Below are positions 3,001 through 46,418 of a DNA stretch of 64,000 nucleotides, piece after piece (position 1 is the first letter of the stretch; every line of letters begins with the position of its first letter). A program made the translations under genes and the position numbers. The notes below the pieces were generated by a model that ran no database searches, had not been told where the DNA came from, and was given only the letters and a program-made list of their open reading frames with translations. The DNA is from a virus (Duplodnaviria > Caudoviricetes), in the IMG/VR virus record IMGVR_UViG_3300022695_000065, positions 5,937 through 69,936 of that record; one strand, given 5' to 3'.

Positions 3001-5469
3001 AATGCAGACGCAGGATTAATTAATTCAAATATATTTCTTTTAGCTAACGGAACTTTAACAGGTGCTGGTGGTGGAATTATTAATGCATTGAATCTTTTAA
3101 ACGGACCAGCAGTACCCGGAGCTGATGTTTCAGGTACTCTTTCCATCGTCGGCTCCACTGGAATGACCCTAGTCGGAAATACAGTTGAGAAGACAGGGGG
3201 CGTAACTGCTGTATGGGATGAGCAGGTTTATTCTACAAACCCCTTTACAGGTGGTGCTGTCGTGTCGTTCAAAGCGGCACAGGATAATAAAGGTTTGATG
3301 CTGGCGCTTAATACCGATCCTTTATTCGATGCTAGCTTTACTTCACTCGATTATGCTTTCTTCTTAACCACAGCAGCGGCAGTTATAATTTATGAGAACG
3401 GCTCTAGTGTAGGGAATTTCGGGGCTTATAATACCCTCACTGAATTCTCAATTATCTATGACGGTTATAATGTAAAATATTATAAAGATGGGATCGCTGT
3501 AAGGACAGTAACTGCTGGGATAGGTAAAATATTTTACCTTGATAGCAGTTTCAGTGACATAGGGGCAAAAGTAACACACATTCAATTTTTACCTTATAGT
3601 CCCTCAGACTGGAACGCATTTGATAGTCGCCCCCTCGAACTCACCGATGGTCGTGTGGCTGCGGGGCTTAGTTCGCTCGGTTTCCTTGATTTTTCAAGAA
3701 CACATATTAACAAATCTCTAGCCAACGTTGATCTTGCCCAAAATACAAAGCTCACGGGGATAGCTCCCTTAGCTACAGTTGGAGCCACAGTTGGAACAAA
3801 TATATTAAATGCTGACGGGACTAATTTGAATCAAGCAGCTTTATCCGCTGGCAGTATTTATGTATTTGAGAGGGAAAAGACCTATAGTCTATCCGCTAAT
3901 GATGGGCAGTCCATTACAGACACGGCGGCAACTATAGGAAAGGCACTGCAAATATGGTCCGGATGGACGGCTAATGTAACTCTTAGTAATTCCACCTTAT
4001 CCAATATTGATCTGTCTTTGGTCATAGGAAAAAAATATCGTATTCTTATACGCGCGAGATCAGTTGGCTCGATTAATTTATCTAATATGACTTTTGGGAT
4101 TTATAATGCCACTCAATTAAATTTTCCGATAAGTACCAATTTCGTAGGGAAAGGCTTATCTGTCCCATATCAAGTGTTTGATATGGGGATATTTATTTCA
4201 GATTGGCTATCCACAGATATGGTGATAACTTACTTTATAAACAATGATCTGAATGTCGGGCATAGTGCTGCAAATTCATTTGTTATTGACTGGATTCATT
4301 TTCAAGAGGTTGACGCCTCTGTTGGGGCCACTGTTGGGGCCAGGCAGGGAACAAACCTATTCAAGTCTGATGGCACTTCCGCCTATACAACAGGAGAGAT
4401 TGAAAACAGTAGAATAGCCCTCGATGCAAACGGTGTCCCAATCAACACCGGCATCACAGTTCCTGTTGAAAATGCTCATACCACACCAGCAGATATTGGA
4501 TATACCGGTGCATTAAATGCAAATTACATCACAAATTCTAATCAATTAATTGATGGTGCAAATTGGGGTGGGACAGCTACATGGGCAACAGTAATAAATA
4601 GACCAACTAACTTAGCAGGGTTAGATAGCCCAGCTAGTGTAAAATTAGGATTAATTTATACCGGAGTTGGTGCATTTTCTACTTTAGTTGGAACAATGAA
4701 TGCTACTAATATTTCTACTTATATAACTGGAGCAGCTATAGGCACAGCTTTAATTAAAAATGCAGCTATTACAAATGCTTTGATTGCAGATGCTGCGATT
4801 AGTAATGCTAAAATACTTGATGGAACTATACTTAGTGCTAAAATAGGAGTAGCTCAAATATTAGCTGCTAATATTGGCTTACTTCAAGTAACTAATGCAC
4901 ATATTGCAAATCTTACTGTTGATACTCTTCAGATTAAAGATGGAGCAATTACAACTCCAACGCAAGTACTTACTCCTTCAACTCAAGTTACTGCTAAGAC
5001 AGGTGCCATTTATCCAGTTTGGTCAGTTAACAGTGCCTATAACACTGGAGCTAAAGTTAATTATAACAATAATGCCTATATAGCTCAGACATTTATAAAT
5101 TCAGGTGGTTCTGATCCAGCCGCTGGTGGAGCTTGGTCATTTTTATCTACTTACCCTATTTCTGATGATCCCTTCCAAGCCATGTCACCTATTACAAGTG
5201 CGTTCCTCGCTAACACAGCTAGTGAGATTTTTGTCTCTATTGACTCTACAGCGAATTACAAATGGGATATTATTATTACTGATAACTCCGATGTGTTTAT
5301 TGAAACATTGGGTTCAGGCTTAGGAAGCGTGGGGAGACTGAACCTTTTTTTTGCGAAGATATATTCATTGGCTATTACACGAAAAGTTAAATTTCGGGCA
5401 TTATCTATATTTGGGGAAATAAACGCCTTCCTAACTACTGATATAATTTTACTCCAATGGAAAAAATAA
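1..5469 (+). CDS. Large mosaic tail fibre / host-specificity protein, 5'-truncated (frame is open from base 1; ORF track starts at 181)
   Basis: Frame 1 reads SALNNAVSSGPFNIWVAYADD... without a stop into the called ORF. Contains collagen-like GxxG repeats, an FN3-like segment (PTVPTNLQA..VRLTWD), a lambda-J/DUF1983-like segment (IKIDVNGNIAGYGLAT..FTVLANQFSI), lectin/CBM-like modules, AxITNAxI repeats and a ChtBD3-like module. Confidence 0.85.
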   Translation, partial: SALNNAVSSGPFNIWVAYADDALGTGITTNPINKSYIGLANNQTTNIVNTSNPSVFNWSLMRGTPGLDGVVGSNGTNGIPGLNAYIHQAYADSANGATNFNFTTGKYIGILTNNTSTVSNLYSDYTWNILQGTGTQGLPGLVDIQLPTVPTNLQAFVNQNTVRLTWDTPPYSGHWYTKVYRVLWDGSNLVNFSETFLVAEAGADFIDVGLLSNQNYLYWARHVNLNSVASVLANSGAGLQVITLTSLIDTFNWVDTAHLKAAIRTRLDNIDTTLIDGKFGLLGAHVALKTSHDLLNISQNNLSNTVGDVNSGLIKAHNDLQIAHNLLSTIVGDNVGGLVQLSNSYGTRITTVETNSTTNITRLSLLEASTKPLIDSWAGPAVTLAQNENLTTATFNITLNATQDTQGLLLLQITNGNLGFHVAFNGVEITEITGFIGASATIAWYNFAVDVIYDEINSTGLNIIKVWSDDFDQPIINKIELRKGLGGAYSRIASLDNLTSTQAVKLSSLGVWGGTSYSTIDSLLSAKADHTTKLNSLGTFTGNSFSVIDNLNQTDINNASAITALTTTVNTANVNLMINFNFEGTNISHLVTGVIDTVIFESGLKSLKISTGNQFAEIWIQETIDGFSSFTAGQAYTIGFWGRNSDSNPRTFGYPDSGSGYGSITIPANSITWTWYTTTFIVPLGFTTKTDINGISYWPFELLSSTIAWVGQVNLDRVVLIRGNQTLNGSETFTTNEAAAASASAIDALNTKVNTVNGILTPLASHTASLGTWTGTGYALIETHSFSLGGLQAQKTIKIDVNGNIAGYGLATTTSDSGNITSAFTVLANQFSIANPTISNPLGFSTPFLVSGGVVTMDTAFIQNLTASKITGGTIGANDIFIGSNNLAIRGAKFGVGKGSIVANDGINDILTLGFIDSTNIGLLIKDNTGSTVFKSSVDTASVIRNTSQQWVDIGGIGKPIDNADVTANNTAANIAGQGALATQNNIALTTQVTGFLNSANADAGLINSNIFLLANGTLTGAGGGIINALNLLNGPAVPGADVSGTLSIVGSTGMTLVGNTVEKTGGVTAVWDEQVYSTNPFTGGAVVSFKAAQDNKGLMLALNTDPLFDASFTSLDYAFFLTTAAAVIIYENGSSVGNFGAYNTLTEFSIIYDGYNVKYYKDGIAVRTVTAGIGKIFYLDSSFSDIGAKVTHIQFLPYSPSDWNAFDSRPLELTDGRVAAGLSSLGFLDFSRTHINKSLANVDLAQNTKLTGIAPLATVGATVGTNILNADGTNLNQAALSAGSIYVFEREKTYSLSANDGQSITDTAATIGKALQIWSGWTANVTLSNSTLSNIDLSLVIGKKYRILIRARSVGSINLSNMTFGIYNATQLNFPISTNFVGKGLSVPYQVFDMGIFISDWLSTDMVITYFINNDLNVGHSAANSFVIDWIHFQEVDASVGATVGARQGTNLFKSDGTSAYTTGEIENSRIALDANGVPINTGITVPVENAHTTPADIGYTGALNANYITNSNQLIDGANWGGTATWATVINRPTNLAGLDSPASVKLGLIYTGVGAFSTLVGTMNATNISTYITGAAIGTALIKNAAITNALIADAAISNAKILDGTILSAKIGVAQILAANIGLLQVTNAHIANLTVDTLQIKDGAITTPTQVLTPSTQVTAKTGAIYPVWSVNSAYNTGAKVNYNNNAYIAQTFINSGGSDPAAGGAWSFLSTYPISDDPFQAMSPITSAFLANTASEIFVSIDSTANYKWDIIITDNSDVFIETLGSGLGSVGRLNLFFAKIYSLAITRKVKFRALSIFGEINAFLTTDIILLQWKK

Positions 5470-42126: not shown

Positions 42127-42474
42127 TTATTTTTTATCCCTTAATAAATCTAGTCTTAAAATAGTTCTTATATCCATATAATTAGATATATAAAAACTTA
42201 TAAAAATATTATTTTTACCTATATTTCTATTCATTATTATACTTGTATCTTTTTTTAAACTTGGTTTATTAAATAAAGCAATACTATCATCAGATTTCCA
42301 CCCGTCTATTTTAAAAGCTTCTTTAAGTAATTTATAATAATTACCCCGCCAATTATAATTTACAGAAATTTCAGTACCACTAGTTAATCTAGCTAATTTA
42401 TTATAAGCAAATATTTTTTCTATATCAGGTATATTTTCAATAAATTCTTGTATAGATATTTGTTTATTAATCAT
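42127..42474 (-). CDS. Hypothetical protein
   Basis: ORF; has a degenerate tandem paralogue. Confidence 0.6.
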   Translation of the reverse strand: MINKQISIQEFIENIPDIEKIFAYNKLARLTSGTEISVNYNWRGNYYKLLKEAFKIDGWKSDDSIALFNKPSLKKDTSIIMNRNIGKNNIFISFYISNYMDIRTILRLDLLRDKK

Positions 42475-42507
42475 AAAAACCCTTAAATTTAATTAATCAA
42501 TAAAAGG

Positions 42508-43749
42508 CTACGGAGTAGCCTTAGATGGTTTAAATTTATCAATCACTTTTAATATCTCTGCTTTAGATAATCTATTAGGTATTACACAACTCTCAGACCA
42601 ATCAGGATAATAAATATTTAATTCTCCTCCTAATTTAATCTTATTATGTCTAAGTTCTGGTAAATCTTGCCATTCCATACATTCAATTAAATTATCATTA
42701 ACCCATTTAAGACATCCTATTGAATCTTTAATTATGAAATACTGGGAATCATGTATCTGAGCTATTGGTTTAATATCTAAAGCATATTTTGAATTTAATA
42801 CTCTTTGTTGAAACTCTATTCCTGCTCTATTATTTAATAAACCATAAGACTGACCTAAAGCATTACCTGCTGATCTACTTTCAGCAGATGCTTCATATGG
42901 TGTATATGATTTATTTAAATAAGTTTGAGCTAATATAGGAGTTCTTACTCTTAATCCAAAGGCTACAGTAACATATCCATTTATTGTAGCTTTATTTAAT
43001 CTTGCTTTAACCCAATCATCAGATACTTTATATAATTCATGATATTGTTTTTCAATTCTTTTAGCTTCTTCTATAGGTAAACCTATATTATTAACTAATG
43101 TATGCCAAGTTCCCAAATAAGTAAGTGCAAAAGTTGGAGTTTTTGAATCTTGCCTTAATGCGGGATATTTTTGTTTAATTGAATTAATGCTTTCTACTGT
43201 ATTAATAATTCCTTTAAGTTTATTTTTATAATAAGAATAAGCTCTTAAACAATGTCCATCAAACCCTCTAATATAAACTTTTTGTTTATTAGGGTCTTTT
43301 GTTATTAGGGCTGATATTTTATCTTCTAATGAAGTAAAATCAGCTCCTACTAATATCCAACCTTTAAGAGCTGTAAAACATTGTTTTATTAAAGTACCGT
43401 AAATAGTACCTGTATTAGGTAAATTTTGAAGATTAACTTTAGAATTATGTACAAAAATACCATTAGCTAAGAAGCTGCTATCATCTTTGATTTCCAAGTC
43501 ATAAACTCGTGTAATTCCCACATAGTCAACTTGTTGTATATCTGACTCTTCGAGTGTAATCTGGCATGAGCTGCTCTGGTTAATAGAGCTAGATTTTTTA
43601 TAGAGTTGTGTGTTTTGTCGAAATCTACATGATGCACCTCGAATCCTAAAGGTATTTCCGTCATACCAAGGTTTTCGCAAATAACAATATGATGTTTGAA
43701 TACATATTTTGATCCAGTTTTTCCAGCGAACCAATTTGGTTTTAAACAT
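42508..43749 (-). CDS. Family A DNA polymerase, C-terminal half, preceded by the C-part of a split intein (ends ..VHN at 43444; Ser+1 at 43441-43443)
   Basis: Intein blocks F/G VYDLEIKDDSSFLANGIFVHN|S; Pol motifs GADFTSLE (A), RQDSKTPTFALTY (B), QIHDSQ (C). Confidence 0.9.
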   Translation of the reverse strand: MFKTKLVRWKNWIKICIQTSYCYLRKPWYDGNTFRIRGASCRFRQNTQLYKKSSSINQSSSCQITLEESDIQQVDYVGITRVYDLEIKDDSSFLANGIFVHNSKVNLQNLPNTGTIYGTLIKQCFTALKGWILVGADFTSLEDKISALITKDPNKQKVYIRGFDGHCLRAYSYYKNKLKGIINTVESINSIKQKYPALRQDSKTPTFALTYLGTWHTLVNNIGLPIEEAKRIEKQYHELYKVSDDWVKARLNKATINGYVTVAFGLRVRTPILAQTYLNKSYTPYEASAESRSAGNALGQSYGLLNNRAGIEFQQRVLNSKYALDIKPIAQIHDSQYFIIKDSIGCLKWVNDNLIECMEWQDLPELRHNKIKLGGELNIYYPDWSESCVIPNRLSKAEILKVIDKFKPSKATP

Positions 43750-44469
43750 TGTATGTAACCGTTTTCTGTTAAAAGCTCTCCTATAAAATTATGGTGTAAT
43801 TCACCAAATTTATTTTTCATAGGATTTAATTCTCCAGCTTTACTTCTACTATATGATAAAGAAGTTTTAGCTACCCACTCTTCTTTACTATAAGTTGAAA
43901 GAACTATTTGTTTAATTTTAGATCTTCGTATTTTTAATCGTTTACCAAGTTGTTCTGAAGTAGTAGTGTCTAAAGAATCTTTAAACCATTTAAGTATTGT
44001 AGGAGTTATTAATTTTAATCTATTTTCTTTTATTATTGCTAGTCGTAAAAGCTTACGCTCTTTTAATTCTTTAGAAGAATAATGGTTTTTAATTATAGGT
44101 GATATTACTTTACGTGAATATCCTAAACAAACACCTATTTCTTCTATATTTTTAAGAGAACCATCTTCGTATAAGTTTAACACCTTTTGAATAAAGTGAA
44201 GATTTTCGTGCAATGCCATAATTATTTTTTCCATATAATGAGTCTAAAGATAAAAACCCTTGAGTAGTTAATAACCTATGATTACCTGTACAAGTAATAG
44301 ATTTACCATTGCATAAAGTTATTTTATAGACTTTAGCCATACCTGAATCTACTACTCCCACTACTGGTTTCCAATTACCTTTATGGGTTAATACTTCGGT
44401 TCCTAGAGTGATATTTATAATATCTACTAAACCTTCCTTAGACTGTACCATAATTCCTTTAGGTAAACA
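43444..44469 (-). mobile_element. Split intein plus HNH element inserted at GRLSS/SKVNLQNLP of the DNA polymerase
   Basis: Removing the element restores the PolA-type GRLSSSxxNLQNLP motif in frame. Confidence 0.88.
43467..44234 (-). CDS. HNH homing endonuclease, out of frame, overlapping both polymerase/intein halves
   Basis: KYVFKHHIV..EVHHVDFDKTHNSIKNLALL..HARLH; NUMOD3-like KAGELNPM. Confidence 0.9.
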   Translation of the reverse strand: MEKIIMALHENLHFIQKVLNLYEDGSLKNIEEIGVCLGYSRKVISPIIKNHYSSKELKERKLLRLAIIKENRLKLITPTILKWFKDSLDTTTSEQLGKRLKIRRSKIKQIVLSTYSKEEWVAKTSLSYSRSKAGELNPMKNKFGELHHNFIGELLTENGYIQCLKPNWFAGKTGSKYVFKHHIVICENLGMTEIPLGFEVHHVDFDKTHNSIKNLALLTRAAHARLHSKSQIYNKLTMWELHEFMTWKSKMIAAS

Positions 44470-46170
44470 ACTAGATAGTCTACCACTTAATGCGCCGCCT
44501 ATATTAAAATTACCATGGAGATACCATAAACCATCATCTTTAAAAATAGTTTTATATTTAAAAGCTTCTATAAAAGTATTTAATATTATATTTGTTTCAG
44601 ATAAATGTATTAAAGCATTTATAATATCTAGTTTTTTTTTATCGGTAGTAGTATTTAATAATTTTTTTAATGTTTTATTGCCTACAGCAGCTTCACCAGT
44701 ATCTGTTTTATCTATTTCAGGTAACTTTAAAAAAGCATATAATAATCTTCTGGTTTGTAATGTGCTTTTAGGATTAAAAACAATATTTTTAAAACTTTCA
44801 AAAGGCTTAACTTTTACTTTTAATAATAAATTTTCTTTTATAAAAGCATCTTTTTGTAAAAATAAATTATAATCTTTAATTAATTTAGAATTATGTAAAA
44901 TAACCTCTTGTGTTGTTTTAATATTACTTAACTTATTTTCTGCTATAAATATTTTATTCATATTCATAGGCATACCAGATAATTCCATTTGTAATATAAC
45001 TTTTATACTAGGAATTAATATTTTATTATAAACATATTCTTGTTTATCTTTTATCATAATAGGTAGATTTTTATCTCTAACATACCAAGTTGATAAACAA
45101 TCAATTAAGTTATATTTTAATAATTCATGTAAAGGTATTTTTTTAATATCATTAATATCATCCTTTGCATAATTACCTGCAAATTCATGAGCATTTTCTT
45201 TAAGAGATAGATTATTTCCTGATGTAGAATTAGTAGCTAAATAAGTTATTATTTTTGTATCATCTATATTTTTAGTTAAAGCTTCTAATCCATTTATTAA
45301 ACCTTGTTGGTTTAATAATTCAGCTTTCATATATAATTCAAATATAATAATTTTTATATCATAATTAGCATTATGGTAAATTAATTTACCTTTATATGTA
45401 TTAAAGAAATTAAGTAGTAAATTACGTATTTTTATATTTATTACAAATATATCATAATTACCTGTTGAATAAGATTTAGCAACACTAGAAAGTTCTTTAT
45501 AATCACAAGCAAATGCTACACCATTATGCTTATCCCACGCAAATGCAATAGTAGCTATTCCTGCTTTATTAAACTCTAATGAAAAAGTTTCTATATCTAC
45601 TGTTAAAGCAGGATACTGATGTAAGCTTGCTAACGTAAGCGAAACTTCATCAACAGTGCTCGGAAAGGCTTCTGAGTGTATAATAGAGTCTCCGAGACTT
45701 ACATACGTTCCTTGCTGGTATTTTCTTAATGTACTTAATGAAAGATTAATTTTATTTTTTAATTTTGGATCATAGAATAATCTTTGATAATTTACTCCTA
45801 AGATTATTTTTAAATGCTCATATCCTTTAATTTTACAATTAAGTATATAGCCATAATAAGGTTCTACTTTTCTTACTTTTGTTAATGTTTTAAAATAATT
45901 ACTATCACAAACATATAATATATTTATTTCTAGATGTTTTATAGATTGTAATAAATTATTTAAATATTCTTTTATAAGTTTAGCTGGAGCTTTATTTTGA
46001 ATATTATATTTTAAACTAAAAGCAATAATATCATCATTATTTAATGATAAAGTAGAAAGATAATTATCTTCAATAAATTTCTTATGTAATGCAGCCTCTT
46101 TAATTAATAATGCTATTTTATAAGGATTATTCAATAAATAGTTTTTATCTCTAAATATTATATGTTTCAT
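44152..46170 (-). CDS. Family A DNA polymerase, N-terminal half (3'-5' exonuclease), followed by the N-part of a split intein (Cys1 at 44467-44469)
   Basis: Exo motifs TVDIETF, HNANYD, YNLIDC; GRLSS|CLPKG (block A); CTGNHRLLT (block B TxxH). Confidence 0.92.
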   Translation of the reverse strand: MKHIIFRDKNYLLNNPYKIALLIKEAALHKKFIEDNYLSTLSLNNDDIIAFSLKYNIQNKAPAKLIKEYLNNLLQSIKHLEINILYVCDSNYFKTLTKVRKVEPYYGYILNCKIKGYEHLKIILGVNYQRLFYDPKLKNKINLSLSTLRKYQQGTYVSLGDSIIHSEAFPSTVDEVSLTLASLHQYPALTVDIETFSLEFNKAGIATIAFAWDKHNGVAFACDYKELSSVAKSYSTGNYDIFVINIKIRNLLLNFFNTYKGKLIYHNANYDIKIIIFELYMKAELLNQQGLINGLEALTKNIDDTKIITYLATNSTSGNNLSLKENAHEFAGNYAKDDINDIKKIPLHELLKYNLIDCLSTWYVRDKNLPIMIKDKQEYVYNKILIPSIKVILQMELSGMPMNMNKIFIAENKLSNIKTTQEVILHNSKLIKDYNLFLQKDAFIKENLLLKVKVKPFESFKNIVFNPKSTLQTRRLLYAFLKLPEIDKTDTGEAAVGNKTLKKLLNTTTDKKKLDIINALIHLSETNIILNTFIEAFKYKTIFKDDGLWYLHGNFNIGGALSGRLSSCLPKGIMVQSKEGLVDIINITLGTEVLTHKGNWKPVVGVVDSGMAKVYKITLCNGKSITCTGNHRLLTTQGFLSLDSLYGKNNYGIARKSSLYSKGVKLIRRWFS

Positions 46171-46181
46171 TATATTAATAA

Positions 46182-46418
46182 CTATGTATTTTTAAATTTA
46201 GAGTTATTAGATAATCTTCTATTATACAATTTATTTTTTATTCTTCTTAAATCTGTATTAGATAATTTCCATTCTTCTTTATTATTATAGTATAATACTT
46301 TTGTTTTAAGTGCTTTCATTGCTGTATTTGAAGCTACAATAAATAAATCTTTTTTAAAACATATTTTTTTTTCTACTTTTATAACTATACCTTCAATTAT
46401 AAATTTTAAATTTAGCAT
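46182..46418 (-). CDS. Hypothetical protein
   Basis: ORF track. Confidence 0.5.
   Translation of the reverse strand: MLNLKFIIEGIVIKVEKKICFKKDLFIVASNTAMKALKTKVLYYNNKEEWKLSNTDLRRIKNKLYNRRLSNNSKFKNT

Follow-up and report, generated by a model that had tools for sequence, protein, structure and literature searches.

We analyzed a 64,000-nucleotide stretch (the window) of the phage record IMGVR_UViG_3300022695_000065 in IMG/VR, in which the gene for family A DNA polymerase (polA) is very probably a fractured gene. Its two halves carry the halves of a split intein, a free-standing HNH endonuclease gene is overprinted on both, the polymerase would be assembled by protein trans-splicing, and the cassette would be able to home. 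The window makes up most of the 69,936-bp record, which has direct terminal repeats. The G+C content of this genome is 28%, and its polymerase region shares 65 to 70% nucleotide identity with N4-like podoviruses (Schitoviridae). No second polymerase copy was found in the genome, which is complete with terminal repeats and has the fractured gene as its sole family A polymerase.

Three overlapping open reading frames (ORFs) run across polA on the minus strand: the N-terminal polymerase half with its intein half (PolN+IntN), the HNH_3 endonuclease, and the C-terminal intein half with the rest of the polymerase (IntC+PolC). Their parts are as follows (a slash marks an intein boundary).

46170..44152, minus strand: PolN+IntN ORF, 672 aa; reads ...GALSGRLSS/CLPKGIMV...TCTGNHRLLTTQGFLSLDSLYGKNNYG...RRWFS-stop
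44470..46170, minus strand: PolN extein, 567 codons, up to ...GALSGRLSS; carries the N-terminal region and the exonuclease of the family A DNA polymerase
44152..44469, minus strand: IntN, 105 codons plus the stop codon at 44154-44152; Cys1 (CLPKG), block B TGNH, and a basic 25-aa tail
44234..43467, minus strand: HNH_3 homing-endonuclease ORF, 255 aa, in the +1 frame; PF13392 at 32 bits versus a cut-off of 24.8
43749..42508, minus strand: IntC+PolC ORF, 413 aa; reads M...ITLEESDIQQVDYVGITRVYDLEIKDDSSFLANGIFVHN/SKVNLQNLP...
43444..43560, minus strand: IntC core, about 39 codons; ...SDIQQVDYVGITRVYDLEIKDDSSFLANGIFVHN; blocks F and G, ending His-Asn
42508..43443, minus strand: PolC extein, 311 codons plus stop; begins with Ser+1 (SKVNLQNLP...); palm and fingers

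The insert extends from Cys1 to the terminal Asn (44469..43444; 1,026 nt, or 342 codons), and both polymerase halves share a frame. It lies between Ser567 and the next Ser of the conserved motif GRLSS/S(x)PNLQN, a position fixed by intein-free close relatives, which read GRLSSSKVNLQNLP without interruption. The PolN extein gives a partial PF00476 match and the PolC extein the rest of it (73 bits); the latter is 64 to 66% identical to intein-free relatives. Computed excision of the insert restores an 878-aa polymerase. The HNH ORF overlaps IntN by 83 nt and the IntC ORF by 283 nt. A preliminary description of the locus, made from its letters, had proposed these coordinates, the 105-aa IntN, the HNH gene in the +1 frame, the shared polymerase frame, and both overlaps, and we confirmed all of them to the base. 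Its estimate of roughly 20 polymerase-frame stops between the halves also held: there are exactly 20, every one within codons 106 to 227.

The residues expected of a class 1 intein (Cys1, TGNH as the TxxH motif, VYDL, His-Asn, and Ser+1) are all present in the two halves, and the end of IntC reads VYDLEIKDDSSFLANGIFVHN before the Ser+1 extein residue. The gp41-1 split intein itself comes from a fractured gene. It was the best solved match to IntN (6qaz; E = 6e-7), and the last 34 residues of IntC aligned with the C terminus of the Spl DnaX mini-intein (7cfv; E = 6e-6). The catalytic residues and these two matches support the earlier proposal of a fractured gene with split-intein halves. Trans-splicing is likely, because all the splicing residues are intact. 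IntN and IntC would associate and join ...GRLSS to SKVNLQNLP..., yielding the 878-aa polymerase, with ...LSGRLSSSKVNLQNLP... as the predicted peptide across the spliced junction.

The cassette in polA would be a 1,026-bp mobile element encoding parts of three proteins on one strand. The HNH endonuclease is predicted to cut the intein-free polA of coinfecting relatives near the motif, and repair would copy in the whole cassette. Homing is suggested by the sporadic distribution of the intein, by the many empty sites, and by homologues of the endonuclease in PolA introns at the same motif (see below). The G+C content of the cassette (43444-44469) is 0.30, rising to 0.35 in the dual-coded 3' part, versus 0.22 in the flanking PolN extein; such an excess would fit either a foreign origin or constraint from dual coding.

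Selection on the polymerase frame and the start of IntC

Two further parts of the insert are defined by how the polymerase frame behaves beneath the HNH gene.

43789..44151, minus strand: decayed polymerase-frame linker; 19 stops (the 20th is IntN's own stop), open only in the HNH frame
43561..43749, minus strand: IntC leader; ATG 43749 plus about 62 codons of polymerase frame overprinted on the HNH catalytic core, net charge +12

A stop arises in the polymerase frame wherever an HNH codon ending in T precedes a codon starting with AA, AG, or GA. T preceded 19 of 42 such at-risk sites in the central part of the HNH gene and none of 28 in its 3' part (Fisher P = 1.3e-5), where T still makes up 28% of third positions. 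We then resampled synonymous HNH codons according to the phage's own codon usage (20,000 trials). In the middle of the insert, 16.3 stops were expected and 19 were seen, indicating no constraint on the polymerase frame. From 43788 to 43566, 10.6 were expected and none was seen, and because none of the 20,000 resamplings yielded such a stop-free stretch across the 3' part of the HNH gene, this layout lies beyond chance. Stop avoidance could be followed in subintervals, with P = 0.019 between TTG 43734 and TTG 43680, P < 1e-4 between 43680 and the IntC core, and P = 0.002 for the stretch upstream of GTG 43521. Where the IntN tail overlaps the beginning of the HNH gene, it is likewise kept stop free (2.1 expected, 0 seen; P = 0.008). 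Selection holds the polymerase frame open from ATG 43749 onward and not in the middle of the insert.

On the simplest reading, IntC-PolC would be translated separately from ATG 43749, or possibly from TTG 43734. IntC is probably made as a 102-aa protein part with a leader of about 60 aa, overprinted on the HNH core and resembling off-frame text, in front of a 39-aa Hint core that is overlapped almost entirely by the HNH tail. We rejected the start at GTG 43521, which would leave a 26-aa IntC, since both the homology to solved inteins and the stop avoidance reach upstream of it; the alignment with 7cfv begins at SDIQQVDY, ahead of that codon.

The gene calls supplied with the source shorten both overlapping genes, placing the start of IntC-PolC at GTG 43521, codon 77 (P0001), and that of the HNH gene at Val18, 44183 (P0003). 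The call for the related protein P0002 has the same shortening. Gene callers' limits on same-strand overlaps are probably the reason. The locus stands as an annotation warning, as its overlaps led gene callers to shorten both IntC and the HNH.

Relatives of the endonuclease and the intein

The HNH protein consists of two helix-turn-helix modules, an HH..N..H core, and a conserved tail (..KLTMWELHEFMTWKSK..) that is overprinted on IntC; its ORF extends 94 codons into the IntC coding sequence. The core, HH..D..N..N..H, has H201, H202, D204, D206, N210, N214, H223, and H227 invariant across relatives. Of these, P0004, P0005, and P0006 are 63, 67, and 41% identical to it and retain the full N terminus and the tail ..KLTMWELHEFMTWKSK..A[ST], that is, the stretch overprinted on IntC block F. 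The HNH ORF begins and ends at positions of its own that are conserved among relatives. AlphaFold2 modeled residues 1 to 133, the two helix-turn-helix modules, with a predicted local distance difference test score (pLDDT) of about 90.

Cultured-phage relatives of the HNH (about 40 to 45% identity) are located in PolA, and the tail is never covered by the match. Homologues reside in group I introns of PolA in Shigella phage B2 (L005:2428-3200), PhAPEC7 (L071:1044-1700), and Providencia phage PS3 (L072:1036-1700), and in the last two the polymerase coding sequence is annotated as joined across the intron. The first exon ends GRLSSSKP in B2, GRLSASEP in PhAPEC7, and GRLSSSNPNL in PS3, that is, 3 to 6 codons downstream of the intein site. 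One HNH lineage, as judged by these sequences, targets this PolA motif, occurring in introns as well as in inteins. A single-sequence scan of viral sequences with the HNH as the query gave no match, a search for the tail by a degenerate DNA pattern (WELH[EQ]F..W) only recovered the contig L065 again, and a scan of genome contigs gave only a distant HNH.

Split relatives of the locus were found in independent assemblies. A Logan assembly encodes P0008, a 663-aa PolN-IntN that is 64% identical to that of the window overall, and also in the PolN extein, and 86% identical in IntN; it stops IntN at the equivalent position (...YGKGNYGTTRKSSIYSRSVKFIRKRFY-stop). P0009 (69% identity) has the IntN stop at the same position as the window. 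In P0002 (JGI), the same IntC (88% identity) occupies the site that it has in the window, and PolC is 68% identical. The Cys1/TxxH/HN-type splicing residues are kept in all three.

Unbroken inteins occupy the same PolA motif in L064 (278 aa), a metagenome contig on which a primase-helicase gene lies upstream, and in L065 (271 aa), an IMG/VR contig of 59% G+C. Both have an HNH ORF that lies wholly within the intein, on the same strand and with the same +1 offset as in the window; these HNHs are 42 to 44% identical to that of the window and share its invariant catalytic core and tail. L066 shows the layout of a contiguous intein with an overprinted HNH as far as the contig reaches. When HNH codons were resampled in L064 and L065, 13.7 and 9.3 polymerase-frame stops were expected and none was seen, which shows that both contigs maintain the two frames.

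When IntN and 30 extein residues served as the query of an exhaustive HMMER search, an intein at GRLS(S)/C turned up in many PolA proteins. Most of these inteins were contiguous (260 to 283 aa), some were mini-inteins of 122 to 179 aa, and a few proteins ended about 100 aa past Cys1. Several linkers of the protein-only matches look like off-frame HNH text (e.g., ..SYRQQSIKQ..), which suggests an overprinted HNH there too. In a tree of IntN sequences, the window, P0008, and P0009 formed a supported clade (96/85). Its sister was P0010, an N4-like polymerase whose 260-aa intein is contiguous, followed by L064. Because the window clade nests inside contiguous forms, the split is derived from the contiguous dual-frame form. 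This nesting, together with the same +1 HNH in L064 and L065, supports the proposal in the preliminary description that a contiguous dual-frame intein has split. The description had also called the locus a possible intermediate, and here descent from a contiguous form stands but a recent intermediate does not: the middle of the linker has decayed fully to the neutral stop density, so the locus is a settled split form and not a fresh break, one that has persisted as polymerases diverged to 64% identity.

A second truncated clade (L008, P0126, and P0136) was also supported in the tree. L008:1770-5336 (IMG/VR) is a second fractured PolA, broken one codon upstream in the motif (GRMS/C...HN/SSDPNL). 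Its gap holds a 317-aa ORF for a DUF559/Vsr-like nuclease that overlaps IntN by 47 nt and IntC by 31 nt, and its 38-aa IntC has an ATG start, which gives a classical fractured layout. The IntN of L008 belongs to the same intein family as that of the window, in a separate split clade, and the L008 clade split independently around the Vsr-like nuclease.

The search for empty and occupied alleles that had been suggested for this locus yielded both: 28 further N4-like loci have an intact GRLSSS, and contiguous as well as split inteins occupy the site elsewhere. None of the cultured phages in the collection carries an intein of this family. Such a sporadic distribution with many empty sites is as expected for a mobile element.

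Other interruptions were seen in related polymerase genes. In several close relatives, L048:2079-5149 among them (and also L045-L047, P0009, P0012, P0028, and P0032), the polymerase is broken about 65 codons upstream of GRLSS. In L048, a 149-aa ORF (3581-4030) lies between a 500-aa PolN' and a 370-aa PolC', the latter starting MTKITRQEAI, and no intein blocks were seen at this break. In Pollock (L003:2500-3200), Vibrio phage JA-1 (L004:2400-3300), and L060, unrelated HNH genes split PolA at a further site, ahead of GYDGHSLRAF. There are several independent hot spots for insertion in N4-like polymerase genes.

Alternative explanations

Several observations weigh against a functional split intein with a long-leader IntC. 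The block F His is replaced by Ser (DDSSF versus DHSF in relatives). Each half, holding a partial domain, scores below the PF14890 cut-off (17.6 and 21.4 versus 35.8 bits); of the contiguous relatives, L064 lies above it (38.5 bits) and L065 just below (35.3 bits). The IntN tail (+7) and the IntC leader (+12) are both strongly basic, so that they offer no mutual attraction and might hinder assembly of the halves; the pair is an oddity. ATG 43749 has at most a weak Shine-Dalgarno sequence, and inspection does not settle where IntC starts. The frame-conservation test of the split locus was made on the window alone. The structural models of the HNH catalytic part (pLDDT below 50, from an alignment of only four sequences) and of the L064 intein (mean pLDDT of 37) were too poor to use.

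Some of these points bear on the main rival, namely, that the halves no longer splice, or splice very inefficiently, and serve as docking tags for a noncovalent PolN-PolC complex. Split polymerase and ribonucleotide reductase genes that work without splicing have precedents in T4-like gp43, as cited in PMC2677866, and in Aeh1 NrdA (PMC3045599), and both the block F Ser and the two basic tails would suit such a role. However, the nucleophiles, TxxH, and HN are intact in the window, P0008, P0009, and P0002, and IntN is better conserved (86%) than the exteins (about 60%), whereas a relic would be expected to lose Cys1 or Asn. Noncovalent assembly without splicing is disfavored by the conserved nucleophiles, and we consider it unlikely. 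A polymerase that is simply dead, its gene broken by a selfish element in a defective phage, is far less probable still. The genome is complete and this is its only family A polymerase, and the split form persists, with conserved exteins, across polymerases that have diverged to about 64% identity.

The remaining rivals would make the insert contiguous again. Frameshifting or transcriptional slippage at two A6 runs near the frame changes, GGAAAAAAT near 44226 and ATAAAAAAT near 43600, could produce a cis-splicing IntN-HNH-IntC protein, and the second run fits an A_AAA_AAT heptamer in the HNH frame. Runs of A are common at 28% G+C, however, and the IntN frame is open to its stop and the IntC frame from its ATG, as for separate translation. 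We rejected recoding at these runs: the first is not conserved (GKGN in P0008 and GVNN in P0009), and a shift at the second would shorten the HNH motif by deleting its last His and a helix, which are invariant in relatives. Recoding is therefore highly improbable. We give even less credence to an assembly or sequencing error that hides a contiguous intein, whether in frame or dual frame. The locus comes from a single metagenomic assembly of an AT-rich genome with homopolymers, but there are 20 stops rather than one, independent assemblies stop IntN at the same place, the stop density in the middle of the insert equals the neutral expectation, and the HNH has its own conserved boundaries. The two compensating indels that the preliminary description had named as an alternative are excluded by the 20 stops, the independent assemblies, and the conserved dual-coded tail. 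Removal at the RNA level, with the HNH region as a group I intron, would accord with the homologous HNH genes in the introns of B2, PhAPEC7, and PS3, yet it seems just as scarcely tenable. A scan with Rfam RF00028 gave no match in 42400-46300 at E values up to 10, on which ground a group I intron at the insert was rejected, while B2 gives a weak match (E = 0.016). Moreover, the HNH runs so far into IntC that there is no room for a ribozyme core, and the intein blocks border the insert exactly and in frame.

Comparison with known systems and neighboring features

Fractured genes in which split-intein halves surround a free-standing endonuclease, including gp41-1, were described by Dassa et al. 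in 2009 (PMC2677866). The endonucleases there were only GIY-YIG and Vsr-like, the overlaps were 6 to 69 bp, and the authors suggested that HNH genes could act likewise. The window resembles these genes in that a replication gene is divided into two same-strand ORFs with IntN and IntC, an endonuclease ORF lies between them, and the 3' end of the latter overlaps the start of the downstream half. It differs in its HNH_3 nuclease, in a 283-nt downstream overlap that covers nearly all of IntC, in the overprinted leader of about 60 aa, and in that contiguous ancestors of its intein family are identifiable.

Contiguous inteins with an out-of-frame endonuclease have been known since Gorbalenya 1998 (cited in the dnaX preprint), and preprints of 2025-26 report them among the dnaX inteins of actinophages and cyanobacteria. 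According to the 2025 preprint, split inteins would be a frequent outcome of such invasions; it shows none derived from a dual-frame form. In those inteins, as in the window, a same-strand endonuclease ORF occupies an alternative frame in mid-intein and the in-frame linker is unstructured filler; L064 and L065 have exactly this layout. Unlike them, the window does not keep its polymerase frame uninterrupted (20 stops in codons 106 to 227). Compared with the dnaX cases, its nuclease is of the HNH_3 type and its host gene is the PolA of N4-/T7-like phages of Gram-negative bacteria.

Group I introns with HNH genes are also known from phage PolA (compare I-PfoP3I [PMC3428280]). Those of B2, PhAPEC7, and PS3 share with the window a homologous HNH (35 to 45% identity) and the motif GRLSSSxPNLQN, 3 to 6 codons away. 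They differ in being removed as RNA (by the weak Rfam match in B2 and the joined coding sequences), in having no intein blocks, and in an HNH without the tail that overlaps IntC. Genes divided by an HNH gene without any intein are reported for Aeh1 nrdA-mobE (PMC3045599) and for T4-like gp43. There, too, a mobile HNH gene interrupts an essential replication gene whose halves are translated as separate proteins, but these assemble without a splicing element, whereas the window has complete and apparently active intein halves.

Both parent layouts have been published, and the window does not represent a novel type of system. Its locus is a fractured PolA of the HNH type, with a dual-coded overlap of unusual length and with contiguous ancestors that can be traced. 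A broader reading, for which we put the chances at somewhat below even, combines three proposals: that the locus is a still-mobile three-protein homing element, with about a third of its 1,026 bp read in two frames and a long-leader IntC; that with L064, L065, and P0010 it forms the first natural series from a contiguous dual-frame to a functional split intein; and that its HNH lineage moves between protein-level and RNA-level splicing elements.

Arguments on the origin of split inteins have so far come mostly from models. At this one PolA site, a single intein family is represented by empty sites, mini-inteins, contiguous inteins with an overprinted HNH, and two independently split clades, one with the HNH and one with the Vsr-like nuclease. 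Because several states exist side by side, the gene-breaking pathway proposed in 2009 and 2025 can be put to the test on natural sequences. In addition, the split pair is a candidate new trans-splicing reagent, with Cys1/Ser+1, a gp41-1-like IntN, and an unusual long-leader IntC.

Elsewhere, the window encodes a 3,842-aa ORF, whose size suggests the virion RNA polymerase of N4-like phages. A scan for sigma-70 promoters gave matches at chance level. A consensus scan placed one further feature at the polymerase stop codon.

42504..42522, minus strand: terminator-like hairpin with a T-rich tail (TTATTGATTA); 8-bp stem with 4 GC pairs

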